Positions 27,050 to 51,629 of a stretch of DNA of 64,000 bases are shown here, piece after piece. The DNA comes from an uncultured Methanomassiliicoccales archaeon. Lineage in GTDB: Archaea; Thermoplasmatota; Thermoplasmata; Methanomassiliicoccales; UBA472. How positions within the stretch are numbered: the first letter of the stretch is position 1; the number at the start of each line of letters is the position of its first letter. The DNA lies in NCBI GenBank assembly GCA_942492955.1, contig OW818644.1, positions 1,439,541 to 1,503,540 of the forward strand, written 5' to 3'. The position numbers and the translations under genes are program-made. The notes below the pieces were generated by a model. It worked only from the letters and a program-made list of their open reading frames with translations, was not told where the DNA came from and made no database searches.

Positions 27050-30000
27050 TCACTTCTGCGTGTATTTCAGGAAAAGCTTGACCCGCTGCCTGTTGAATAT
27101 CGCATCCTTGAAGTTCGGGGACAGCTCGATGGCGCTTTCGTAGAGCTTCAGCGCCCACTTCATCTCCCCTTCCTTCTCGGCGATGAGCCCGAGGGCAAAA
27201 TCGATCTCCGCGGTCTCCTCGTACTGGAGGGCCGAGGTGAGCGAAAGCTTGGCCCCCTCGATGTCACCCGTCATGATCTGGCATTTGCTCATATTGATGA
27301 GGTAATCTGCCCTCCGGTCCACCGCGATGGCCTTGCGGATCGCTTCCATCGCCCCGTTGTAGTCCCCGAGCACGAAGAGCGTCGCCCCGATGTTGTTCCA
27401 CGCATCGCCGTAGTTGGGGTCGGCCTCGACCGCCAGGTGCATGAAGTGCATCGGCTCGTCGTAACCGTACTCGCCCATGAAGCGCATGCAGACGCCCATG
27501 TTGTTGAGCGCCTCCGGGTAGGTCGGGTGCTCCAGCAATATCTCCTTCAGCACCCGGTATCCCTCTCGGTACTTGCCCTTGGCCATAAGGGACGTCGCCA
27601 GCGCCATCCGGGACACGAGCGAGTCGAGCGGACCGAGGTTGGAGTATTTCGAGATGATCTCGTCATAGCGCTTGGCGTCCAGCAGATTGACCGCCTCCCG
27701 CGCCCTGACCTCCTTGCTTGGGGAGATGGAAGCGAGTATGCGCATCGATTCCTCCCTTCGGCCTAGCCTTCTGGAGATCGACTCGATGTCCATCAGCGCG
27801 ATCTCGTCCCTGGGGTCCAGGCGGATCGCCTCCTTGAGCTCCTCCAGACATTCGGGGAGCCTCCCGAGGTCGTCAAGGATGTTGGCCTTGACATGCCTGG
27901 CATCGTGTGATTCGGATTTTTCCTTGATGTACCGGTCGATCTCTTCCAATGCCCGGGCGTTCTCCCCGAGGATATTGAGGATGACGGCGGCCTTCAGTTC
28001 GCGGTCGCTGATGGGGATCTCCGGCTCGACCGGGGTCTCGATGACCGGCGCCGGTGCGGTCGGTATGACCTCATCCTGCTTTGAGGCTGGAACAATAACG
28101 GGGGCCGGCTCGATCACCGATATCGCAGCGGATGGCAAGACCATGATTTCGCTCTCGACCTCGACCTTTGAGACCGCAAGTTCGTCCGTCGGGACCACGA
28201 TGGCCGTTTTCTCATCGATCAACGCGGGGAGGGTCTTTTCTTCTTGGACCGCCACGCTCACTTCTTCCTCCCGGATCGCAGGGGCAACGGCCGGTTCGAG
28301 CGGGACGACCGAAGTGTGTGCCTCGACATTCTGGATCTCGCTGCAGGACGGTTCTGGCACCCGCAGCGCGGTCTCACTCTCGGTCGGCACCAGGGAGAGC
28401 GGTTCCGGTGTGATCGTTGCCGGTACGCTGACCTTTTCGACATTGAGGGCGTTCTCCTCGATCGGAAGCGATGGCGCTTCGGGAGCGGCCGGCTCGACCT
28501 CCATTTCTGTCGTTGAAAGCTCAGCGGTCGGGACTTCTGGCTCGATCGGTTCGGGTGATGGTATCGCCGGCTCAGTCTCCGGTTCTATGAAAGGCGCGCG
28601 ATCTTCCTGGGCAGCTTCGATGGGCGTCTCGACGACCTCCTCGACCAGGGGTTCAGGGATCTCGGCCACTTCCGGCAACGCGGCATCGGGCTGGACCGTG
28701 GCTTCCTCCACTTTCTCCGGTTCCACGATCGGCGCTGCCTGCTCCATTGGCAACGGCCGTTCTTCAATCACCGATGCTGCATTCACCTGGACCACCGGTT
28801 CAGGCTCGGGAACGGTCTCCGGGACGCTCTCCTGAATTGGTTCAATGGTCTCGGCGGCATCCGGTTCCTGTGAGGGGACCGCCATCCCGGTGGCGGCCAG
28901 AAGTTCGTCCCTCTCTGCCACGGCCTCTGTCATGCCCTTGTCCAGCGAGGCTGCGGTCTCGAATGATCTGGTCGCATCGGCCAGTCTTCCGACCGCTTTC
29001 TGCGACATTCCCAGCGAATACCATATGTCCGCCCTGTCCCGGTCGATCTGAAGAGCGTCCGTCCAGGCCTCGATGGCCTCCTCGGTCCTGCCCATCAACA
29101 CCAACGTCAGCGCCCGATTGATCACTGGGTCTATGTAGTTCCGGTTCAGGAACGATGCCCGGTCAAAGGACTCGAGCGCTTCCTTGTGACGCCCCATGGA
29201 TTTGAGCACGATACCCCGGTTGTTGAAGGCCATGGCATCATTGGGGTAATAATCGCACATGTCCTCATAGACCTTCAGCGCCCAATCGTAGCGATGCAGC
29301 TGGAACAGGGTCGCTCCCTTGTTCAGCAGCGCCGCCTCCATACGCGGTTGGATCTTGAGCGCGGTATCGTATGCCTTGAGCTCCTTCTCGAAATCGCCCA
29401 ATTGGTTGTAAGCCAGGGCCATGAGGTACCAAGCGGTGGCATCTCCCGGCCTCAGCTCGCTGGCCCGCTTGGAAGCGACGAGCGCGTCGTCGTAACGGCC
29501 CATGGCCAGGAACACGTTCGCCTTTCGCAGCCATACGACATCGTTGTTCGGTTTGATGTCCAGTGCGCGATCGTAGTTGTAGAGGGCGTCACGGTACCGA
29601 CGCATTTTCAGATGCTCCTCCGCCGCATTGTAGAACGCGTCGAACTGAGCCCCGGAGGGAAGGTAACGGTTCCGGTCCTTCTCCAGGATGTTCCGGTCGA
29701 TCTCCGCCATCATCTTCCCGGCCAGGTCGTACTTCCGTAGAAGCATGAGCAGCTTCGGCTTGTCCGCGTAGGAAATGCTCTCCGCCTCGGCGAACTTCTT
29801 CTCTTCGTCATCCAGGTCGCATGTAACGACCAGCACCGGGATGGCGCCCCTCTTCGCCGCCATCTCCTTGAGCACCTTCATTGATCCGACGGAAGCGTTG
29901 TCGAACAGGCGCGATGCCGCCACGAAATACTGTCCTTCCTCGCTGATGCCTTCGAAGAACACCGCGTCCTCCGATGCGTCTATCCTGGTGACCTTGACGC

Positions 30001-30118
30001 CGATGCTGCCCAGCAGCTCGGAGATGAGGTCTTTGAAACCGTCGAAGTCCAGGTCGTTGATGGCGTGCATTATGCGCTCGTCCATGCGGCTGTCCAACAG
30101 TTCACTGAGGTCGGTCAT
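27050..30118 (-). CDS. Large TPR protein: degenerate Mrr-like N-terminal domain, TPR arrays and a Glu/Pro/Ala-rich linker
   Basis: Many TPR consensus units (AW..kG..L..lG.y.eA...fD.Al), a long E/P/A/V low-complexity linker, and a second TPR array. Confidence 0.85.
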   Translation of the reverse strand: MTDLSELLDSRMDERIMHAINDLDFDGFKDLISELLGSIGVKVTRIDASEDAVFFEGISEEGQYFVAASRLFDNASVGSMKVLKEMAAKRGAIPVLVVTCDLDDEEKKFAEAESISYADKPKLLMLLRKYDLAGKMMAEIDRNILEKDRNRYLPSGAQFDAFYNAAEEHLKMRRYRDALYNYDRALDIKPNNDVVWLRKANVFLAMGRYDDALVASKRASELRPGDATAWYLMALAYNQLGDFEKELKAYDTALKIQPRMEAALLNKGATLFQLHRYDWALKVYEDMCDYYPNDAMAFNNRGIVLKSMGRHKEALESFDRASFLNRNYIDPVINRALTLVLMGRTEEAIEAWTDALQIDRDRADIWYSLGMSQKAVGRLADATRSFETAASLDKGMTEAVAERDELLAATGMAVPSQEPDAAETIEPIQESVPETVPEPEPVVQVNAASVIEERPLPMEQAAPIVEPEKVEEATVQPDAALPEVAEIPEPLVEEVVETPIEAAQEDRAPFIEPETEPAIPSPEPIEPEVPTAELSTTEMEVEPAAPEAPSLPIEENALNVEKVSVPATITPEPLSLVPTESETALRVPEPSCSEIQNVEAHTSVVPLEPAVAPAIREEEVSVAVQEEKTLPALIDEKTAIVVPTDELAVSKVEVESEIMVLPSAAISVIEPAPVIVPASKQDEVIPTAPAPVIETPVEPEIPISDRELKAAVILNILGENARALEEIDRYIKEKSESHDARHVKANILDDLGRLPECLEELKEAIRLDPRDEIALMDIESISRRLGRREESMRILASISPSKEVRAREAVNLLDAKRYDEIISKYSNLGPLDSLVSRMALATSLMAKGKYREGYRVLKEILLEHPTYPEALNNMGVCMRFMGEYGYDEPMHFMHLAVEADPNYGDAWNNIGATLFVLGDYNGAMEAIRKAIAVDRRADYLINMSKCQIMTGDIEGAKLSLTSALQYEETAEIDFALGLIAEKEGEMKWALKLYESAIELSPNFKDAIFNRQRVKLFLKYTQK

Positions 30119-31015: not shown

Positions 31016-32575
31016 CTACCTCAGAGCCTTTCTCATGTAGGGACCGTGGTGATCGTATCCCAACGTGGAATAGTATCGCCGCACGCCCACGCCGCTGGTG
31101 ACCCGGAGACCCTGGTAACCGTGTTCCTTTGCCTGTTGTTCCGCCAGAGCCAGCAGTTCCTTGCCGAAGCCTCGGTGCTGTACGTTCCCATCCTGCCCGA
31201 TCTTGGCCATCAGTCCGAACACCTTAAGCTCCCGGACCATGGCGTCGATGCCCTCGCCCCTCCTCAGCCTGACGAATCCCACCAGTCCGTCCTGCTCCGG
31301 CAGCTCGAGCGAAATGAAATCCTCGATTCCGCCGGAGGATCTGTATGACTCTGACTTGAGCACCACCTCGTTCCTGTCAAACGCGGTGATCCCTTTCAGC
31401 CCCACCTCCCGGCATCGTATGCACTGGCAACGGGCCCCCTTCTCTTTCAGCCGAGCCTCGGCCAGTTCCCTCAAGTGACCTTTGTCGACCCCGGCCTCGA
31501 TCAGCGGGACCGGGATGTCCCTTTGGATGCGCTGGACCCTTGCCCATCGCGGCACCAGACGGAGCATCTCGGAGATGGTCTCGGTAGCTTCTTCCGTATC
31601 CAACGGCTCGTACTCCCCGTTCAGCCACATGTCGTACAGCTTGGTCCCTTTCACCACCAGCGTGGGATAGATCTTGACCATGTCCGGGCGGAACCGCTCA
31701 TCATCGAACATGGTGCGGAACGATCCCACATCCTTCTCCATGCTCGACCCGGGCAGGCCCGGCATGACGTGATAGCAGACCTTGATGCCGGCGTCCTTGG
31801 CCACCTTGGTGGCATCGCTCACCTCCGTTACCCCATGACCCCGGTTTACCGATGTCAGAATGGCATCGTCCAGTATCTGGACCCCGAACTCTACCCGGGT
31901 CGCTCCCAGGCTCAGGACGTTGGCGCATATCTCCGTCGTGAAATGGTCCGGCCTCGTCTCTACGGTCATCCCGATGCACCGGTGCTCGGACGTCTCGTTC
32001 CTGGCCTGCGCCTCGATAAGCGTCTGGGAGGCTTCTCCGTTCAAGCCGTCGAAGCAACGCTTGACGAAGTCATCCTGGTATGACCTTTCCCTTGAGGTGA
32101 ATGTGCCACCCATGACGATCAGGTCGACCTTCTCTGTCTCATGGCCGATCATCTCCAGCTGCTCCATCCGGCCGCGGACCTGCCTCTCCGGATCGAACTC
32201 GTAGTTCGCCCCTCGAAGCGCCGCTGGCTCCTTGCCGGTGTACGATTGGGGTGAATTGTTATCTACTCCGCCGGGGCAGAAGATGCACTTGCCATGCGGA
32301 CAGGGGGCTGGCGATGTCATGACCGCCACCACAGCCACTCCGCTGAGGGTACGTACCGGCTTTCGCCTCAGGATGCTGATGACCAGTGGATACTCCTCAT
32401 CGGAAGCGAAAGCGAGCGTTTCTGAGTTACGCGGAACGCCTGCCAATGCGTATCGGCGGCACAGCTCTATCTTGGCCCGCTGTAATGCGTCCTTATCGGT
32501 TATCTCCCCGTCCAGGATCATGCGGAGGAGCCGCTGGTGATACTCGGTGGCTTCGCCCATTGGAATGGTTCCCAC
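31016..32575 (-). CDS. elp3: Elp3 radical-SAM tRNA U34 acetyltransferase
   Basis: KP.RTLSGVAVVAVMT.P.PCPHGKC.FCPGG, MGGTF, ETRPD, K.YPT.V, RELKV, QHRGFG.LL. Confidence 0.96.
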   Translation of the reverse strand: MGTIPMGEATEYHQRLLRMILDGEITDKDALQRAKIELCRRYALAGVPRNSETLAFASDEEYPLVISILRRKPVRTLSGVAVVAVMTSPAPCPHGKCIFCPGGVDNNSPQSYTGKEPAALRGANYEFDPERQVRGRMEQLEMIGHETEKVDLIVMGGTFTSRERSYQDDFVKRCFDGLNGEASQTLIEAQARNETSEHRCIGMTVETRPDHFTTEICANVLSLGATRVEFGVQILDDAILTSVNRGHGVTEVSDATKVAKDAGIKVCYHVMPGLPGSSMEKDVGSFRTMFDDERFRPDMVKIYPTLVVKGTKLYDMWLNGEYEPLDTEEATETISEMLRLVPRWARVQRIQRDIPVPLIEAGVDKGHLRELAEARLKEKGARCQCIRCREVGLKGITAFDRNEVVLKSESYRSSGGIEDFISLELPEQDGLVGFVRLRRGEGIDAMVRELKVFGLMAKIGQDGNVQHRGFGKELLALAEQQAKEHGYQGLRVTSGVGVRRYYSTLGYDHHGPYMRKALR

Positions 32576-32579
32576 CGTA

Positions 32580-32864
32580 TCAATTGTAGAAGATCGAGTC
32601 AGGTTCCTTCTTCAGGCGGTCCTCCTCGTGCTTGTAGTTCAGGACATCGATGATCAGAACGGACATGGACGGTATGATGCGAAGGACCCCATCGAGATCC
32701 GTATCCTCCGATTGGAGCTTTATGCAGACCCCCGAGTCCTGTCCGAACTGTGTATAGCCCATGAACTCCCCTAAGGAAACGATCTGTTCATCCTTCCCGC
32801 CCCTGCTGACGATGCGGTACTTGCTGCCCCTGGTCAGTTTGCTTGGGTATTTTTCCTCTTCCAT
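32580..32864 (-). CDS. Conserved-looking 94-aa hypothetical protein
   Basis: True start MEEEKYP with SD GGAGTGA. The longer 190-aa ORF merely overlaps the upstream gene. Confidence 0.7.
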   Translation of the reverse strand: MEEEKYPSKLTRGSKYRIVSRGGKDEQIVSLGEFMGYTQFGQDSGVCIKLQSEDTDLDGVLRIIPSMSVLIIDVLNYKHEEDRLKKEPDSIFYN

Positions 32865-32869
32865 GTTGC

Positions 32870-33319
32870 TCACTCCTTGTTGGCAAGATCTTGCATGTGA
32901 TCGATCGTCTGGCGGTAGTTCTTCATCGCCATCTCCACATTCGCCTCGGTGAACGACCAGGCCTTGGACAGGTCTCCATAGCGGACACGATATCCTTTCT
33001 TCTTTCCCCCGTCCCTCTCCGCGTCCACCTCCTCGAGTATGTCCATCGACTTGAGCTTGTTCAGGTGGCGGTAGATCGTCGGTTTGGTGGTCTTCAGCTC
33101 GACGGCCATCTCTTCGACCAACCAGATCCGCTTCATGTTGCGTAGAAAGCAATCAGTGAACATCTTGTAGGGGACGCTGTCCTGCACGTTGGAGACCTCG
33201 GTCTTCGGGTCGTAGCCTTTCGGTATGTACCCGATCTGCTGCAGGAACTGCAGTGTTACCTCGTCCAGGTCCCTGATTGGCGTCAGCGGTGTGTTGCTGA
33301 CGATGCTGAGCTCAAACAT
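32870..33319 (-). CDS. Winged-helix transcriptional regulator
   Basis: W.VEEMAVEL.TTKPTIYRHLNKL...DILE HTH plus wing GY. Start moved to MFELS. Confidence 0.8.
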   Translation of the reverse strand: MFELSIVSNTPLTPIRDLDEVTLQFLQQIGYIPKGYDPKTEVSNVQDSVPYKMFTDCFLRNMKRIWLVEEMAVELKTTKPTIYRHLNKLKSMDILEEVDAERDGGKKKGYRVRYGDLSKAWSFTEANVEMAMKNYRQTIDHMQDLANKE

Positions 33320-33563
33320 GTTAATCGGGTCGATGATGGTTGTTAAGCTATTGAATATTATTGTAAAGACCACGCCTATTATTATTATGCATTACCATTT
33401 TCAAGAGGATGATGTCGATGAGGCCTGGAATTAGCAACCCGAATATCTACATATTTCCTATTTGTGATAATAGTGGTAAATATTGTACAAAGAGGATACG
33501 TTTTACCTCTATAGGAGGAAGTAATTTATATCCTCCCGGTTTTGATGGTAATAGGTATATCTC

Positions 33564-34661
33564 ATGGTTAAAAAAACGACTGCGATAATTGCAGTGGTTG
33601 TAGCGGTGCTAGCAGTGACGGCGATCATTGGAGCAGTGCTGCTTGCACCCACTAATAACACCGAGAAGGTTGTATATTGGTCTCAGATCGCCCCTGTGAA
33701 CCAGAAGGCGGCCATTTCTGAGGGAAAGGTCTCTGCAGGAGTGAGCTGGGAACCATACGTCTCTGATTCACTGGAAGCTGGGACAGCCAATGTGATTGCG
33801 TGGTCGGGCGATATTTGGCCCAACCATCCGTGCTGCGTTCTGGCGGTCAGCAGTACATTCGCCCAGAGTTCCCCTGACGCCGTTGCGAGACTGTTGCGTG
33901 CGAACATTGAGGCAAATATCTGGCTCAACGATGCCCTGTCCCACCCTAACAGCACGAACTACACTTTGCTGCTGAACATGGGCGCCCAGTTCAGCGGAAG
34001 GAGCACAGATGTCGTCAACGCCTCATTGGAACATATCGTATACAGCAGCGAGCTGACCGCTCAGGATAGGTCCTGGTTCGTCAATTTCACCACCGATTTC
34101 GAGAACCTTGGACTGTATACCACCAATATCACGGAGAAGGGGTACGCCAACGCCACTGATTATGTCGACCACCTGGTCGATGACTCGTTCACGGCTGCGG
34201 CGATGGCGGTACTACCGAGTGACCATATCGTGGCGAACGTGAGCCTGGGTTACCTAACCGGAGACCTGCATCAGTTCGCAAGGGTGATCGCATCCAATGA
34301 GACCGTTGGGGGCGGACAAAGTCTGTTCACGAAGTACGGTGTACAAGTCACTACCCCGAATCCAGCAGGATACGCGAACGGGGGATTTGTAATGGATGCT
34401 TTCAAGGCCGGCACGATAGACATGGGATACCTGGGGGCCCCGCCAGCATTGTTGAAGGTCATTAACGCCGGCACTGACATCAAGATAATATCCCTGGTCA
34501 ACTCGGAAGGATCGGCAATCATCGCCCAAAATGGAATAACCAGCTTCGACCAGCTGAATAATAAGACCATAGCCACTCCGGGACCGGCGTCCATCCAGCA
34601 TCTCCTGTTCCTGTTCTATGCAAATGAGCACGGCTACAAGGTCAAACTGTCTGGCACATAA
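33564..34661 (+). CDS. NitT/TauT (SsuA/TauA-like) ABC substrate-binding protein, circularly permuted
   Basis: WEP...SGDIWPNHPCCVL block comes before the LGYL...G.IDMGYLG.PP...EGSAI...PG..SIQH block, the reverse of the family order. Confidence 0.85.
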   Translation: MVKKTTAIIAVVVAVLAVTAIIGAVLLAPTNNTEKVVYWSQIAPVNQKAAISEGKVSAGVSWEPYVSDSLEAGTANVIAWSGDIWPNHPCCVLAVSSTFAQSSPDAVARLLRANIEANIWLNDALSHPNSTNYTLLLNMGAQFSGRSTDVVNASLEHIVYSSELTAQDRSWFVNFTTDFENLGLYTTNITEKGYANATDYVDHLVDDSFTAAAMAVLPSDHIVANVSLGYLTGDLHQFARVIASNETVGGGQSLFTKYGVQVTTPNPAGYANGGFVMDAFKAGTIDMGYLGAPPALLKVINAGTDIKIISLVNSEGSAIIAQNGITSFDQLNNKTIATPGPASIQHLLFLFYANEHGYKVKLSGT

Positions 34662-34724
34662 ACACTATTCGAATTTTATAACAAACCTTTTTATTTCTTT
34701 ATCACTTGCATGAGGAATGTTCAA

Positions 34725-35546
34725 ATGTCCAAATCATATGAATCCCTATTGAAATTCCTTAAGGATAACTTTGGACAGAAATTCTTCAAGATTATCATCT
34801 TCGTGATAATTTCATTGGCCGGCTTCGTGGCCGTCTGGTGGGCTGGATCGATTCTTCTAAGGTCCGATTACTTGCCTACCCCTCCAGGAGTGTGGGAGGC
34901 CTTCATCAGTTCCTTCACTCGCGATGACCCCGTCCTGGGCATCAACATGTGGCAGAACATATTCGTCTCACTGCAACGGTTCATTGCCGGTTTCCTTTTG
35001 GCGTTTATCGTCGCGATACCGGTGGGACTGGTAATGGGATTCTCAAAATTGGTTGACCTTCTGGTCAAACCGATCATCGAGTTGTTCCGTCCGATTCCGC
35101 CGATCGCTTGGGTTCCTTTCTTCCTGTTGTTCCTAGGAATATTTTGGGGCCCAATCGTCATCATTTTCATTGGTGTGTTCTTCCCGTTACTCTCTTCGGT
35201 CTATTTCGGTGTCAAGAGCGTCGATCCGATACTCCTTGATGCGGCTCGGACCCAAGGGGCAGGACGCGGAGCCATCTTTAGCAAAGTCATTCTTCCTTAC
35301 ACTGTGCCATACATCATGACCGGCATCCGCATTGGTTTAGGGATTGGCTGGATGTGCATTGTGGCCGCGGAGATGATCGGAGCGACAGGAGGGGGGATCG
35401 GATATTACATCAGTGTTCAGGGCGATATCGGCAATTATCCCTCAATGTTCGCTGGGATAGCTGTCATCGCCATTCTTGGGATAGCCACCACTGGGTTGAG
35501 CGGTTATATTGAGAAGCGCTTGAACCAGAGGACGGGATTGAAATGA
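34725..35546 (+). CDS. NitT/TauT ABC permease (SsuC-like)
   Basis: LPTP..V, RPIPPIAWVP, LDAART.GA, GLGIGWMCIVAAEM. Confidence 0.92.
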   Translation: MSKSYESLLKFLKDNFGQKFFKIIIFVIISLAGFVAVWWAGSILLRSDYLPTPPGVWEAFISSFTRDDPVLGINMWQNIFVSLQRFIAGFLLAFIVAIPVGLVMGFSKLVDLLVKPIIELFRPIPPIAWVPFFLLFLGIFWGPIVIIFIGVFFPLLSSVYFGVKSVDPILLDAARTQGAGRGAIFSKVILPYTVPYIMTGIRIGLGIGWMCIVAAEMIGATGGGIGYYISVQGDIGNYPSMFAGIAVIAILGIATTGLSGYIEKRLNQRTGLK

Positions 35547-36313
35547 GCTTGAGCATCAGGAACCTTCGCAAAGTATTCCCCAAGGAGGACGGCGAGATGG
35601 TCGCCATAGACGACTTCAGCCTGGAGGTCAGTGAAGGAGAGTTCGTCTGCATCCTTGGTCCATCTGGATGCGGCAAGACCACTCTTCTCCGTATGATCGC
35701 TGGCCTGGAGACTGCGACATCCGGAGAATTGCTCCTGAACAATGTGCCGATCACTGGTCCAGGCTCGGACAGGGGAATGGTGTTCCAAGAGTTTGCCTTG
35801 TTCCCTTGGCGAACGGTAAAGAAGAACATCGAGTTTGGTCTTGAGGTCAAAAAAGTATCTCCCATGGAAAGGGAAAGGATTTCCAAGAAATTCATCGACC
35901 TGGTTGGCTTGAACGGTTTCGAGAATTATCATCCGATTCAGCTTTCAGGCGGTATGAAACAGAGGGTGGGTATCGCCAGAGCATTGGCCAATGAACCGAC
36001 CATTCTCTTGATGGACGAACCGTTCGGTGCTCTGGATGCTCAGACGAGGAATATGATGCAGAAAGAACTGCTACGCATCTGGAAGGAAACACAGAAAACA
36101 GTCGTCTTCATAACTCATTCGGTCGACGAGGCGGTATTCCTTGCTGACAGGATAATCGTACTCACCACCCGCCCGAGCACGATCAAGGAGATCTTCGAGA
36201 TAAAGATCGAAAGGCCCAGGGATAGGGCGAGCGTAGAATTCGCGAACCTGAGGAAGCTCATCCTGGCGGAACTGGAACAGGAAGTGGTTTCCGCGCCAAA
36301 GACGGTAATTTGA
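35543..36313 (+). CDS. NitT/TauT ABC ATP-binding subunit (SsuB-like)
   Basis: GPSGCGKTT, FQEFALFPW.TV, LSGGMKQRV, MDEPFGALDAQTR. Confidence 0.94.
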   Translation: MSLSIRNLRKVFPKEDGEMVAIDDFSLEVSEGEFVCILGPSGCGKTTLLRMIAGLETATSGELLLNNVPITGPGSDRGMVFQEFALFPWRTVKKNIEFGLEVKKVSPMERERISKKFIDLVGLNGFENYHPIQLSGGMKQRVGIARALANEPTILLMDEPFGALDAQTRNMMQKELLRIWKETQKTVVFITHSVDEAVFLADRIIVLTTRPSTIKEIFEIKIERPRDRASVEFANLRKLILAELEQEVVSAPKTVI

Positions 36314-36835
36314 TCAGAGCACCTTCGACGCTGCCACCTCGATCGCCCGCTTCACGCTGTCCCTCGGGATGACGACGCTTACTGGTATGGTCAATATCTG
36401 TTCGATGGTCGGAGCGATGATCGGGGCACATACGATCGCCAACGCGCCGTCCCGCTCCGCCTTGACGGCGGCTATGATGGCATCCTCCATGGTCAGGGCT
36501 GGGTACTCCTTCACCTTGACGTTGCGCTCGCCCACCTGGAGTATCCGTTCCTCGATCTTCAGCAGAACGCTCTTTGTGGCGATGACGGCGATGAACTCTC
36601 CACCGGGATAGGTGTCCATCTTCCTGACCGCCTTGATCACAGCACGCACGGTGCGGAGATTCGGTTCACGCTGCTCTTGCAGGATCTTGTACACAGTGGA
36701 AGGTGACAGCCCGGTCTTCTCGCAGAACTCCGGAACGCTGACCTTCAATTCCTGCTCCAGGATCTTGCGCAGTGCTTCCCTGAAGCCCTCCTCGCTCCTG
36801 AGAATGCCGCCGACCAGCTCATCCACCATTGACAT
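36314..36835 (-). CDS. XRE/Cro-type HTH regulator with C-terminal alpha/beta sensor-like domain (archaeal family)
   Basis: EFCEKTGLSPSTVYKIL..QREPNLRT, FIAVIA, AIVCAPI. Confidence 0.8.
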   Translation of the reverse strand: MSMVDELVGGILRSEEGFREALRKILEQELKVSVPEFCEKTGLSPSTVYKILQEQREPNLRTVRAVIKAVRKMDTYPGGEFIAVIATKSVLLKIEERILQVGERNVKVKEYPALTMEDAIIAAVKAERDGALAIVCAPIIAPTIEQILTIPVSVVIPRDSVKRAIEVAASKVL

Positions 36836-37726
36836 TTACTCTGTCTCCTTTCTGATCATGTTCGCCGCAGTCGTCCCGGCCACGCATCCCTGCCCGACCG
36901 CCCTTGCCAACTGCCATGGCAGACCCGTAACATCACCGCATGCCAGGACGTTCGCTTGCTCGGTCTTGCAGTCTGCATCGACCTTGATGAAACCCTTATC
37001 GTCCGGCACGATGCCGACATCCATGGCCAGATCGGCCGAGCCCCTCGCCCCTAGCTCAATGAAGACGCCGTTGACGTCCAATTTCCGGCCGTCCTTGAGT
37101 TCCAATGATTTCACCACGTCGGTGCCCAGGATCTTGGATGGCCAGGCTGGGATCAGCACCTCGATATCGGCGGCTTTCATCTTGGCGTTCAATTCCTCGG
37201 AGGCCTTGTTCTCCCGCGCCACCCAATAGACCTTCGACGCATATTCCCGGAGAAGCAGGGCCGCAGCCGCCGCCATGCTTCCGTCACCTACCACCGCCAC
37301 TGTCTTCTTCTTAAAGAAATGACAGTCACAGGCGGCACAGTAGCTTACGCCGAGACCGTGGTATTCCTTCTCCCCCTCGACGTTAAGCTTTACGCGCGAT
37401 ATCCCAGGAGCCAGAATGATGATCTTCGAACGAACCGTATTCATCTTCTCGGTGCTCATCACGAACCATTCGCCTTCCCGGTTCAGGTCCATGACGTCCT
37501 CCGCCATGATCTCGGCGCCGAAGTGTCTGGCCTGATCAATCCCCAACGACAGAATGTCCTTCCCTTCCGCGGTGGCAACGCCGAAGTAATTCTCCACCTT
37601 TGCCTTGATTAGCGCGCTGTTCTCCCTCTTTCCAAGAACCACCGTCTTGACCTTCTTCCGAGCGGCATGGATAGCAGCCTGGAGACCTGAGGGACCGCAA
37701 CCGATTATCGCGAGATCGTAATCCAT
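36836..37726 (-). CDS. trxB: Thioredoxin reductase-like flavoprotein with degenerate NADPH motifs
   Basis: IIGCGPSG..AA, GVSYCAACD, G.I.VD..C.T...V.ACGD.TG. GDGSMA replaces GGGxxA and HRR is absent. Confidence 0.85.
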   Translation of the reverse strand: MDYDLAIIGCGPSGLQAAIHAARKKVKTVVLGKRENSALIKAKVENYFGVATAEGKDILSLGIDQARHFGAEIMAEDVMDLNREGEWFVMSTEKMNTVRSKIIILAPGISRVKLNVEGEKEYHGLGVSYCAACDCHFFKKKTVAVVGDGSMAAAAALLLREYASKVYWVARENKASEELNAKMKAADIEVLIPAWPSKILGTDVVKSLELKDGRKLDVNGVFIELGARGSADLAMDVGIVPDDKGFIKVDADCKTEQANVLACGDVTGLPWQLARAVGQGCVAGTTAANMIRKETE

Positions 37727-38082
37727 TTTCTGACCAGATTATTATGATGGATTCGACTCTATAACCATTTTCCGCTGAGGCGACGCTTATCGCGTTAAGG
37801 AATGAAATCATTTAGCAAATCGAAGAGTCCCGCCAGCTCTCTGACCGCAGCGGACCTTTACCTGGCCGTTCAACTTATGGACGGATGGGAGGCTTGGGCT
37901 TGAACGCTGGCCGTCTCGCGATAAAAAAAGTCTCGCATTCTGGGCGAGCCGCATATCCTTAGGCTTCGTTTCTCATCCACGATGATTAGACGACGCCTTG
38001 TACCCTGATAGAAATATTGGCTAAAGAAGAAGCACCTGACGGCCAGCCAGCCAACTTAAGCCGACCGCAGGGAAATATTCGT

Positions 38083-38493
38083 TCAGAGGTGCTTGGCGAA
38101 CTTGGCCTTCATGAATTCCTTGTTGCCAGCGCCGACGATACGGTCGACCATTTCCCCATTCTTGAAGACAAGGAGAGTGGGAATCGCGGAGATGTTGAAC
38201 CTCATTGGTATGTTCTCGTTCTCGTCGGTGTTCAGTTTGCCAAAGGCGATCTTGCCTTCAAATTCCTTCGCCAGTTCCTCGATGATGGGGGCCAGGGTAC
38301 GGCACGGCCCGCACCAGGGAGCCCAGCAATCAATGATCACAATCTTGTTGGCTTTTACGAAATCGTCAAACGTGCTGTCCTTGACCTCAGTTGCGGATGA
38401 TATGTTCTCAACTCCTTTTTTGTTATATATTTCGTGCTTCAGTAATTCAAGCTTTTTCCTTCGAATGGCATCAAGCTCTTCCAATTCGTTCAA
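38083..38493 (-). CDS. trxA: Thioredoxin with N-terminal extension
   Basis: WAPWCGPC, KLNTDEN, SAIPTLLVFKNG. TTG start with GGAGG SD. Confidence 0.93.
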   Translation of the reverse strand: MNELEELDAIRRKKLELLKHEIYNKKGVENISSATEVKDSTFDDFVKANKIVIIDCWAPWCGPCRTLAPIIEELAKEFEGKIAFGKLNTDENENIPMRFNISAIPTLLVFKNGEMVDRIVGAGNKEFMKAKFAKHL

Positions 38494-38736
38494 TTGTCAG
38501 ACCTCCATCCGGTTGTGCATGAACTTTACATAACCGTATTCTTGCCTTTGGGATAAATACCTTTTCTTGGAAGGCCTTGACACGCCAATTAGAAGCTGGC
38601 ACTTGAGATAGCTATCGCAGGGGGTACTATTTAATGAATCTCGGCGTCGATTTGTTGTCATTTTTCAGCCCTTTTCATGACTGGGGTCCAATAAGCCTTA
38701 AAAGGGTGATTGACGTTATGCATGTTGGGATCGGCG

Positions 38737-39024
38737 ATGCTTGAGGAAGCTACAGAGCTCATCGGATTGCAGGTGTATACACCAAATGGCATTTTCTTGG
38801 GGAACGTCAACAACCTGGTAATAGACCTGGAAAACAAGAAGGTCGACGGGCTCTTCATCAATGAGACCAACCCGCTGTTGGTCGAGGACTCGAAGGCAGT
38901 AAACGTACCATACCGCTGGATCCAGTCGGTAGGGGACGTAGTCATACTGAAGTACTTCCCGAAGCGCGTGACGGCCCGCAAGCCGGCCGCAGCGGCGAAG
39001 GCAGCAGCACCCCAAGAAGAGTGA
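38737..39024 (+). CDS. PRC-barrel protein (CdpB1-like)
   Basis: LIG.QVYT.NG.FLG.V.NL.ID.E...V.GL...N..L...V.VPYRWIQSVGDVVIL. Confidence 0.82.
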   Translation: MLEEATELIGLQVYTPNGIFLGNVNNLVIDLENKKVDGLFINETNPLLVEDSKAVNVPYRWIQSVGDVVILKYFPKRVTARKPAAAAKAAAPQEE

Positions 39025-51529: not shown

Positions 51530-51629
51530 GGGTCCGTAGCTTAGTCCGGTGGAGCGTCAGGCTCATAGGATGCACTTAGCCATCTAAGAAACCCGATGGT
51601 CGTCGGTTCGAATCCGACCGGGCCCACCA
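51530..51629 (+). tRNA. tRNA with CAT anticodon (probably Ile2, possibly Met) and a 23-nt intron at 37/38 (51568-51590)
   Basis: GGGTCCG/CGGGCCC acceptor, discriminator A plus CCA, CT-CAT-A loop, GTCGG-TTCGAAT-CCGAC. BHB-like intron. TTTTATAT promoter near 51495. Confidence 0.88.

Follow-up and report, generated by a model that had tools for sequence, protein, structure and literature searches.

The 64,000-nucleotide stretch analysed here, referred to below as the window, belongs to an uncultured Methanomassiliicoccales archaeon (assembly GCA_942492955.1, contig OW818644.1, positions 1,439,541 to 1,503,540). On its forward strand, an open reading frame (ORF) at positions 33564-34661, with an ATG start and a clean reading frame, encodes a 365-aa membrane-anchored SsuA/TauA-like substrate-binding protein (SBP; Pfam NMT1_2, PF13379). 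An intact permease gene and an intact ATPase gene, already noted beside it in a previous sequence-only reading of this DNA, lie directly downstream. The same reading had proposed that the protein is a natural circular permutation, its normally C-terminal half being placed first. Our analysis supports this proposal, which was if anything understated: the window SBP is very probably a genuine and functional natural circular permutation of the two-lobed SsuA/TauA fold. The four successive segments of the canonical proteins are called A, B, C and D hereafter, and P0110 designates a close relative that has kept the canonical order. The gene has the following features:

33564-34661 (+): whole SBP gene, circularly permuted, in the order anchor-C-D-linker-A-B (profile searches, pairwise alignment, AlphaFold2, ratio of nonsynonymous to synonymous substitution rates (dN/dS))
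33564-33653 (+): N-terminal signal-anchor, residues 1-30, with KK, a single hydrophobic helix and the spacer PTNNTEK (sequence; DSSP helix 2-27 in the AlphaFold2 model)
33654-33938 (+): segment C, residues 31-125, canonical third quarter, with the VVYW strand, WEP (62-64), HPCC (88-91) and a long helix (SsuA_fam, NMT1_2 and segment hidden Markov model (HMM))
33825-33836 (+): His88-Pro89-Cys90-Cys91 motif (invariant alignment columns)
33939-34208 (+): segment D, residues 126-215, helical, canonical C-terminus (aligns with P0110 275-366; segment HMM)
34209-34238 (+): linker VLPSDHIVAN, residues 216-225, joining the ancestral C-terminus to the ancestral N-terminus (alignment to P0110; predicted local distance difference test (pLDDT) of about 98)
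34239-34469 (+): segment A, residues 226-302, canonical N-terminal quarter, with LGYLTGDLHQ, then GYLGAPP (aligns with P0110 40-116; SaoX profile from position 5 onward)
34470-34661 (+): segment B, residues 303-365 and stop codon, with NSEGSAI, the TPGPASIQHLL helix and the last strand KVKLSGT (alignment to P0110)

All the motifs on which the permutation had been proposed are present, and in the order given. QKAAISEGKVSAGVSWEP (residues 47-64), WPNHPCCVL (85-93) and LLRANIEA (110-117) come early; LGYL (228-231, at nt ~34245, near the position of ~34230 given previously), GTIDMGYLGAPP (283-294) and GYLGAPP (288-294) come late, followed by EGSAI (315-319), TIATPGPASIQHLL (335-348) and TPGPASIQHLL (338-348). 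Profile searches gave the two local matches in swapped order that a split-query HMM alignment had been expected to give: the C-terminal profile half is found first (residues 31-124) and the N-terminal half second (residues 226-357). Thus, residues 31-123 and 270-349 match positions 126-218 and 37-119, respectively, of the NCBIfam model SsuA_fam (TIGR01728, 290 positions), and residues 32-124 and 248-326 match positions 149-241 and 23-101 of NMT1_2 (252 positions). The NMT1_2 match, in two stretches, reaches 79.4 bits for a gathering cutoff of 24.7 bits (E 4.9e-22) and makes the protein a member of this family; the colinear A-B-C-D order of the profile is lacking, which is the permutation itself. 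When the protein was un-permuted in silico by placing residues 216-365 ahead of residues 31-215, each profile gave one colinear match (SsuA_fam 37-218 at 101.2 bits, NMT1_2 24-241 at 88.5 bits). The SsuA_fam score is 93.4 bits as encoded and 101.2 bits un-permuted for a cutoff of 163.5, indicating a related protein that is not a subfamily member. No Pfam-A or NCBIfam model matches the window SBP colinearly, and PF04069 (OpuAC-type) does not match it at E <= 1. The closest solved sequence, S. aureus 3UN6, is matched by the window SBP as two pieces in swapped order.

The permutation also covers the whole protein when it is compared with its canonical relatives. Residues 25-216 of the query align with P0110 174-366 (47% identity, E 3e-64) and residues 226-364 with P0110 40-178 (54% identity, E 2e-49); together these blocks span the query and P0110. 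Two swapped blocks at 47-54% identity are obtained with both canonical-order close relatives, P0110 and P0111. Once rotated, the query aligns with P0110 over 335 positions with 49.3% identity, and the predicted secondary structure (DSSP) agrees at 94% of positions. The new termini (...KVKLSGT at the end of the query and anchor-...NNTEKVVYW at its start, for ...NVTMSGAGTAENTVYW in P0110) are located in a surface loop between adjacent strands, namely the strand after the 'GS.QH' helix and the strand before 'WEP'. The linker that replaces the ancestral termini has a median length of 12 residues in the family. Four segment HMMs were built according to the canonical order (A = query 226-302, B = 303-365, C = 31-125, D = 126-215). 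Each has exactly one significant match in the window, inside ORF 33564-34661, and no leftover segment piece was found elsewhere in the six frames of the window (no other match with E < 0.5).

AlphaFold2, another check associated with the initial proposal, gave a confident model of the permuted protein (pLDDT 95.9, predicted template modelling score (pTM) 0.88), and canonical P0110 was modelled similarly (pLDDT 94.3, pTM 0.87). The window SBP would therewith have a two-lobed alpha/beta fold like that of the solved members. Foldseek being order-dependent, the comparison of the rotated sequence and DSSP string served as a substitute, and the canonical orthologue was folded as a control. The P0110 model has 924 Foldseek matches at E <= 1e-3, including TauA, SsuA, 3UN6, NrtA and CmpA (E to 1e-17, template modelling (TM) score up to 0.82), whereas the permuted model has just 7 weak ones at the same threshold, the best being B. 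subtilis OpuAC (TM 0.35-0.46). In a codon alignment with the closest orthologue (L004, 85% identity), dN/dS is 0.10 overall and nearly equal in the two halves (C+D 0.10, A+B 0.09), and the window SBP gene is under purifying selection. The cleft motifs that are invariant in the family (WEP, HPCC, GAPP, EGSA and TPG..SIQH) are all kept in the window SBP; with such a complete set, the protein is expected to capture its ligand and pass it to the permease in the manner of its canonical relatives. The membrane tether joins the VVYW strand that opens segment C instead of the first strand and, by analogy with the type II fold, would have moved from lobe I to lobe II.

The C-D-A-B (CDAB) order is shared by most relatives of the window SBP. 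Of the 332 relatives found in a database search, the top 120 are 340-600 aa long and include P0110 and P0111; 118 of these 120 are in the query order. Since the same order recurs in these relatives and the Pfam match is highly significant (E 4.9e-22), chance is excluded. An exhaustive search of 1.84 billion representative proteins gave 831 relatives. Among 266 proteins whose topology was examined, 145 are CDAB, 55 ABCD or ABC and 23 BCDA, in addition to multi-copy forms. The chain ends 0-2 residues past the end of the segment B profile across 141 CDAB proteins. This order also turns up in Archaeoglobi (Ca. Mnemosynella), in Halobacteriota metagenome-assembled genomes (MAGs) and in Methanonatronarchaeum, here from an isolate genome (WP_280107823.1). 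In these three groups, lipobox or Tat leaders take the place of the plain anchor and the junction is identical. Because the junction is common to the proteins of Archaeoglobi, Methanonatronarchaeum and Halobacteriota, CDAB is an old topology, widespread in Archaea, and it is the majority order of the family. Therefore, the permutation is neither recent nor specific to this genome.

A scan of one genome per species identified 52 loci, all in Methanomassiliicoccales or in unclassified 'Methanobacteriota' MAGs. According to the segment HMMs, 46 carry an intact CDAB gene, three a frameshifted CDAB gene, two a tandem fusion and one (L052) a canonical gene. CDAB dominates the family in Methanomassiliicoccales; the scan was built from a tight 16-sequence alignment that favours close CDAB relatives, so that 46 out of 52 is indicative rather than an unbiased frequency. 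In the three frameshifted cases (L043, L050 and L054), the syntenic CDAB gene is broken into two or three ORFs that overlap, which could be pseudogenes or sequencing errors in the MAGs. Several CDAB proteins carry extensions. A paralogous CDAB SBP (L045:6809-9484, on the contig shared with L046) is fused to a C-terminal extension of ~450-500 aa, its ORF leaving the contig end; judged by eye, this extension resembles fibronectin-III-like and parallel-beta-helix repeats. P0123 (817 aa) and P0126 (886 aa) likewise combine CDAB with a C-terminal extension of ~450-500 aa. In P0070 (597 aa), CDAB lies behind an N-terminal extension of ~260 aa; the part separating anchor and binding domain contains coiled-coil-like repeats (…QNQI..LQ…) and is in effect a long stalk.

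The various topologies occupy one and the same locus. Its gene order is ELP3 (-), small ORF, helix-turn-helix (HTH) protein (-), SBP (+), permease, ATPase, HTH protein (-), thioredoxin reductase (-), thioredoxin (-) and PRC-barrel protein (+). Besides the SBP gene, it comprises in the window (the transporter genes being assigned by profile search):

31016-32575 (-): ELP3-like radical-SAM acetyltransferase, upstream marker
32870-33373 (-): ArsR/HTH_20-like regulator, upstream marker
34710-35546 (+): NitT/TauT-type ATP-binding cassette (ABC) permease (BPD_transp_1), 278 aa
35355-35357 (+): Cys216 of the permease, in GIGWMCIVAAEM (family permease alignment)
35543-36313 (+): ABC ATPase (ABC_tran), 256 aa, overlapping the permease stop by 4 nt
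36314-36835 (-): HTH protein, downstream marker
36836-37726 (-): thioredoxin reductase, downstream marker
38083-38493 (-): thioredoxin, downstream marker
38710-39024 (+): PRC-barrel protein, downstream marker

The SBP-permease-ATPase arrangement is conserved in all loci, and the upstream and downstream markers are kept beside every topology variant. This neighbourhood recurs around CDAB genes (window, L004 and others), around the canonical genes of L001 (encoding P0110), L056 (P0122) and L052, around the gene of the BCDA protein P0149 (L060) and around the CDABCDAB tandem fusions of L024 and L027. Anchors like that of the window SBP (Lys-Lys and a hydrophobic stretch, residues 1-29) precede all three topologies at the locus. 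When the window is compared with L001, the eight flanking and partner genes align colinearly (54-85% identity), and the SBP alone aligns as two swapped blocks. The two HTH genes (32870-33373 and 36314-36835, both on the reverse strand) bracket the transporter in every genome examined, and their identity (65-98%) is above that of the transporter. Their products are candidate regulators and the genes possibly serve as recombination anchors for cassette exchange.

Four non-canonical cut sites were found in the family, numbered here on P0110 and all located between predicted secondary-structure elements of its model. Pairwise alignment places the cut of the query type at ~178. The BCDA cut lies at ~116, residues 33-290 and 302-382 of P0149 corresponding to P0110 117-366 and 40-115, respectively. 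A cut at ~135 is represented by P0195 from Theionarchaea, whose gene is found on at least 24 contigs and is followed by a permease and an ATPase. The last one, at ~95-98, was seen once (P0155, a complete ORF). Since distinct cut sites cannot share one event, the family must have been permuted at least four times.

Permutation by duplication, with DNA methyltransferases and saposin/swaposin as textbook cases, proceeds by tandem in-frame duplication followed by loss of the outer parts. Duplication then truncation was also the origin that the sequence-only reading had put forward, together with a search for tandem-duplicated intermediates in relatives, and such forms do exist. In two different MAGs, the gene syntenic with the window SBP gene (L024:5888-8017 and L027:5891-8017) is a single ORF of 709-710 aa in which one N-terminal anchor precedes two complete, directly joined CDAB units (...LKPAA|VIYW...). 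All invariant motifs are present in unit 2, which shares ~80% identity with the single-copy genes found in sister species. In unit 1 the motifs are decayed (WEP to LEP, HPCC to HPGS, GAPP to DPAS, SIQH to SMNY and EGSA to EGLA), and this copy is just 52-55% identical to the sister single-copy genes and to copy 2. It is nevertheless still intact and 87% identical between L024 and L027; this decayed yet conserved copy may serve a non-binding role, for example as a stalk or spacer. BCDA units are also found fused in two or three copies behind one anchor (P0153 and P0142), P0153 being encoded on several contigs of a Thermoplasmata archaeon, with a permease and an ATPase following. We infer that these tandem fusions are true intermediates, of the form predicted by the permutation-by-duplication model. 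Duplication then truncation is thus backed by in-frame fusions at the locus, with one copy decaying, and by the double and triple BCDA fusions; this reading is to be corrected in that the event is neither recent nor confined to this genome. Other long relatives were examined as possible intermediates and rejected. P0070, P0082, P0086 and P0046 (395-597 aa) are CDAB proteins with N-terminal extensions or mis-called upstream starts. P0239 (1068 aa), considered as a canonical tandem SBP, contains twice a module composed of a receiver (response-regulator-like) domain and a canonical-order SBP-like domain, the repeats being 60% identical. It has HPCC and no signal sequence, and its composition makes it look like a cytoplasmic sensor made from the same binding module.

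The history of the locus was examined with bootstrapped neighbour-joining trees based on simple distances, SBP units being aligned in rotated (canonical) order. In the SBP unit tree, ABCD and CDAB are found on both sides of a split supported at 89%, and a 98% split places the canonical P0256 inside the BCDA clade; P0256 and the tandem BCDA fusions have a clade-specific insertion in common. The Fitch minimum over 100 bootstrap trees is 7-13 changes (median 11), a number inflated by tree error; the argument relies instead on the distinct cut sites and on the 89% and 98% splits. In the permease and ATPase tree, the ABCD loci L001 and L052 group together (90%) and L056 joins them (44%), within CDAB lineages. 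The tree of the outer-flank genes (1124 columns), which is well supported, distributes these three ABCD loci in three host lineages, each of them sister to CDAB genomes (100%, 100% and 94%). It also separates the tandem-fusion loci L024 and L027, which are sisters in the transporter tree. Because flank and cassette trees disagree, cassette exchange across conserved flanks is the simplest reading, and the transporter cassettes appear to have been exchanged between lineages at this locus. Discordant flank and cassette histories were observed for L052/L040, L001/L041, L056/L048, L024/L027 and L037 versus the window. For L037 compared with window positions 31016-39024, the flanks are 86-97% identical, for 44% in the SBP, 52% in the permease and 69% in the ATPase, which suggests that the cassette either was replaced through recombination at a fixed locus or has evolved very fast.

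From these data, the following sequence of events can be proposed. The mature domain would have been duplicated in tandem and in frame behind a single N-terminal anchor, and the outer portions of both copies would then have decayed and been lost, giving the permuted order. Since the anchor lies outside the repeated unit, a trimmed fusion would remain a tethered permutant. Repetition of this duplicate-trim cycle would account for at least four different non-canonical cut sites, and whole SBP-permease-ATPase cassettes would have passed from one Methanomassiliicoccales lineage to another through recombination across their conserved flanks. More tentatively, one orthologous gene may have cycled repeatedly through fusion of two copies and trimming of the ends (yielding the canonical and at least four other orders, with cuts at ~96, 116, 135 and 178), cassettes of differing topology being swapped at a fixed site. 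This turnover may reflect selection on a tethered, glycosylated surface protein (through tether geometry or escape from viruses using it as a receptor) and not drift alone. Several points weigh against this history. The backbone of the transporter tree is weak (0-57%) and the trees are neighbour-joining trees with simple distances, which leaves doubt about how many events took place and in which direction. With 52% identity between their copies, the tandem fusions are old, and they could represent stable end-states rather than transient intermediates. Finally, no canonical-order, secreted ABCD-ABCD tandem was found among the relatives examined.

Other explanations of the permuted order fare differently. 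A mis-joining of the two halves by assembly, or a mis-called ORF, has practically no chance of being correct. The ORF is clean, it opens with the anchor, and the permease gene begins 49 nt further on; the query order is found in 118 of the top 120 relatives, which come from many sources; dN/dS is 0.10 and the AlphaFold2 fold is confident. Moreover, the query order is carried by 51 of the 52 species-representative loci (46 intact, three frameshifted, two tandem), L052 being the canonical one. Identities range from 27% to 88%. An assembly artefact is therefore excluded, since 52 independent species-level assemblies carry relatives, nearly all in the same order. It is also quite improbable that a canonical gene was split into AB and CD genes that were rejoined in reverse, without any tandem-duplication stage. 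Split genes at three loci (L043, L050 and L054) do indicate that split versions can persist in assemblies, but these splits are frameshifts in CDAB genes (CDA and AB parts overlapping in segment A) and not AB and CD halves. In addition, such a fission and re-fusion would leave unexplained the constant single N-terminal anchor of all topologies, whereas in-frame tandem fusions of complete units are known for two topologies, with one copy decaying. The direction of change is a closer question. CDAB might be ancestral at the Methanomassiliicoccales locus, the ABCD genes of L001, L052 and L056 being reversions from a CDAB-CDAB tandem and not retained ancestors; we consider this a serious possibility, without favouring it. 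The CDAB junction is common to distant archaeal lineages, both the transporter tree and the host-flank tree place the ABCD loci inside CDAB lineages, the CDAB-CDAB fusion at the locus holds an internal ABCD unit, and both orders occur on each side of the 89% bootstrap split. However, the whole wider NMT1/SsuA superfamily is canonical, the support of the transporter-tree backbone is weak, cassette exchange blurs inference from the host tree, and the same permissive loop could have been cut more than once independently.

The family can be compared with several known systems. Canonical SsuA/TauA/NrtA SBPs (NMT1/NMT1_2; type II, cluster F; such as E. coli TauA 6SSY, SsuA 2X26/3KSX and S. aureus 3UN6) belong to the same sequence family, have the same predicted secondary-structure elements and are likewise encoded in an operon with genes for a NitT/TauT permease and an ATPase; the model of the canonical orthologue P0110 superposes on their structures. 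The window SBP differs from them by its C-D-A-B instead of A-B-C-D order and by its tethering through an N-terminal transmembrane helix at the strand that opens segment C; its HPCC motif has only 'CC' in common with 3UN6. The route proposed here is that of the textbook cases of permutation by duplication; in this family, the canonical form, fused duplicates with one decaying copy and at least two permuted products are extant at one locus of one archaeal order.

Circular-permutation relations have been described within the type II fold between B. subtilis OpuAC and E. coli/A. fulgidus ProX, ModA and CysB (Lo & Lyu 2008, CPSARST, PMC2395249). These pairs have <24% identity and were detected only by structure comparison, without known intermediates (PMC2395249). 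OpuAC/ProX is likewise a natural permutation within the type II binding-protein fold, and OpuAC is the best, though weak, order-dependent structural match of the permuted model. Unlike these pairs, the permuted and canonical forms of the present family are positional orthologues with ~50% identity, several cut sites and tandem fusions. Treponema pallidum Tp0684 (MglB-2) is a circularly permuted glucose-binding lipoprotein assigned to 'Type Ic / Cluster Bc' (Brautigam et al. 2016, PMC4990184). Its permuted part is ~13% identical to the canonical N-terminus, acquisition from another gene was considered, and its permuted homologues are mostly membrane-tethered according to the authors (PMC4990184). 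TpMglB-2 is thus a naturally permuted SBP of an ABC transporter that has kept ligand binding and, like the window SBP, is tethered to the membrane. However, TpMglB-2 binds sugar and belongs to Type I (cluster B), whereas the window SBP is of type II, and neither a same-locus canonical orthologue nor tandem intermediates were reported for it. In the literature searched, no paper linked circular permutation with SsuA, TauA, NrtA or NMT1, and the Methanomassiliicoccales literature searched contained nothing specific on this SBP-permease-ATPase transporter.

The SAO system (SaoX/SaoP/SaoA) of Clostridioides difficile and other anaerobes is a NitT/TauT-type transporter in which SaoX is SsuA-like with a double-Cys cleft motif and SaoP has Sec/Cys in a gate helix, a metal or organometallic substrate being argued (Haft & Gwadz preprint, 10.1101/2022.07.06.499078). 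SaoA is the best NCBIfam match of the window ATPase and SaoP the second best of the permease. HPCC of the window SBP and Cys216 of the permease recall the Cys/Sec pattern described for SAO, and may correspond in position to SaoX Cys224-225 or Cys191-192 and to SaoP Sec210, a suggestive resemblance. All scores are well below the SAO equivalog cutoffs (SaoX 33.5 vs 300, SaoP 137 vs 295 and SaoA 278 vs 360 bits). The nine-gene SAO neighbourhood is not found either: the transporter genes of the window are flanked by genes encoding ELP3, HTH proteins, thioredoxin reductase and thioredoxin, and no SaoL, SaoB, SaoC, SaoD, SaoE or SaoT lies nearby. Furthermore, SaoX is in canonical order, whereas the window SBP is permuted and archaeal.

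Ten N-x-S/T sequons are found in the 365-aa SBP, one of them (N31-N32-T33) in the spacer just after the anchor, which is consistent with a glycosylated archaeal surface protein. Given the signal-anchor, these ten sequons and the cognate permease and ATPase, the SBP is predicted to act outside the cell, tethered to the membrane, as the substrate-binding subunit of an ABC importer of the NitT/TauT type. The scores for all named families are far below curated cutoffs (SsuA_fam 93 vs 163.5 and TauC 160 vs 342 bits), and the substrate of the SBP was therefore not assigned. HPCC is conserved in every topology of the family (ABCD, BCDA and tandem forms), and it is replaced by HPGS solely in the decayed unit 1 of the tandem fusions. 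Cys216 of the permease (GIGWMCIVAAEM) is conserved in 52 of the 56 family permeases, at a position where the solved NrtB and CmpB have Ala. To our knowledge, neither HPCC nor this Cys is a feature of characterised SsuA/TauA systems. These residues point weakly towards a thiophilic ligand, possibly a metal or an organometallic compound, and away from nitrate or bicarbonate; it counts against this idea that it rests solely on the conserved cysteines and on sub-threshold similarity to the models of the SAO system. An ordinary aliphatic-sulfonate or taurine importer (or a nitrate or bicarbonate one), as database names imply, seems rather unlikely. SsuA_fam, TauC and TauB/NrtCD are the best named profile matches (the ATPase matching SaoA best, at 278 bits for a cutoff of 360, then TauB and NrtCD), and TauA and SsuA are the structures closest to the canonical orthologue P0110. 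Yet the SsuA_fam and TauC scores are as low as stated, that of TauB/NrtCD is 255 vs 357 bits, HPCC is invariant, the permease has Cys216 instead of the Ala of NrtB and CmpB, and no sulfonate-utilisation genes were seen among the conserved neighbours.

No upstream regulatory RNA, such as a thiamine pyrophosphate (TPP) riboswitch that would have pointed to a thiamine precursor as substrate, was detected; Rfam matched two tRNAs only, both far from the locus. One tRNA, at 51530-51629 (+), is 100 nt long; ARAGORN calls it Pro(AGG) and places the anticodon at position 38, and the Rfam match covers 51530-51626 (52.9 bits). An archaeal intron is probably present, so that the anticodon call may be unreliable. 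Elsewhere in the window, 27050-30118 (-) encodes a 1022-aa tetratricopeptide repeat (TPR) protein with a Pro/Glu/Val-rich low-complexity centre of ~350 residues, and a related TPR gene is also found upstream of ELP3 in L056.

Circular permutation in binding proteins is already known from OpuAC/ProX and T. pallidum MglB-2. What is new here is the SBP family concerned, how close its permuted and canonical orthologues are to each other, the existence of several cut sites and the survival of fused intermediates. Natural series in which one orthologous locus still shows the starting form, the fused intermediate and more than one product are rare; in this one, with ~50% identity across it, its members are near enough for ancestral reconstruction and laboratory replay. 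Since order-dependent tools nearly miss the window SBP (split profile matches, and 7 Foldseek matches vs 924), permuted families of this type are systematically under-recognised. Moreover, many biosensors are built on binding proteins, and the four natural loop cut sites and the ~10-residue linker indicate positions at which the fold accepts new termini. The transporter is conserved in H2-dependent methylotrophic methanogens from gut and wetland habitats, and the invariant HPCC and the Cys of the permease suggest that these organisms import a substrate missed by the current 'sulfonate/nitrate' labels.

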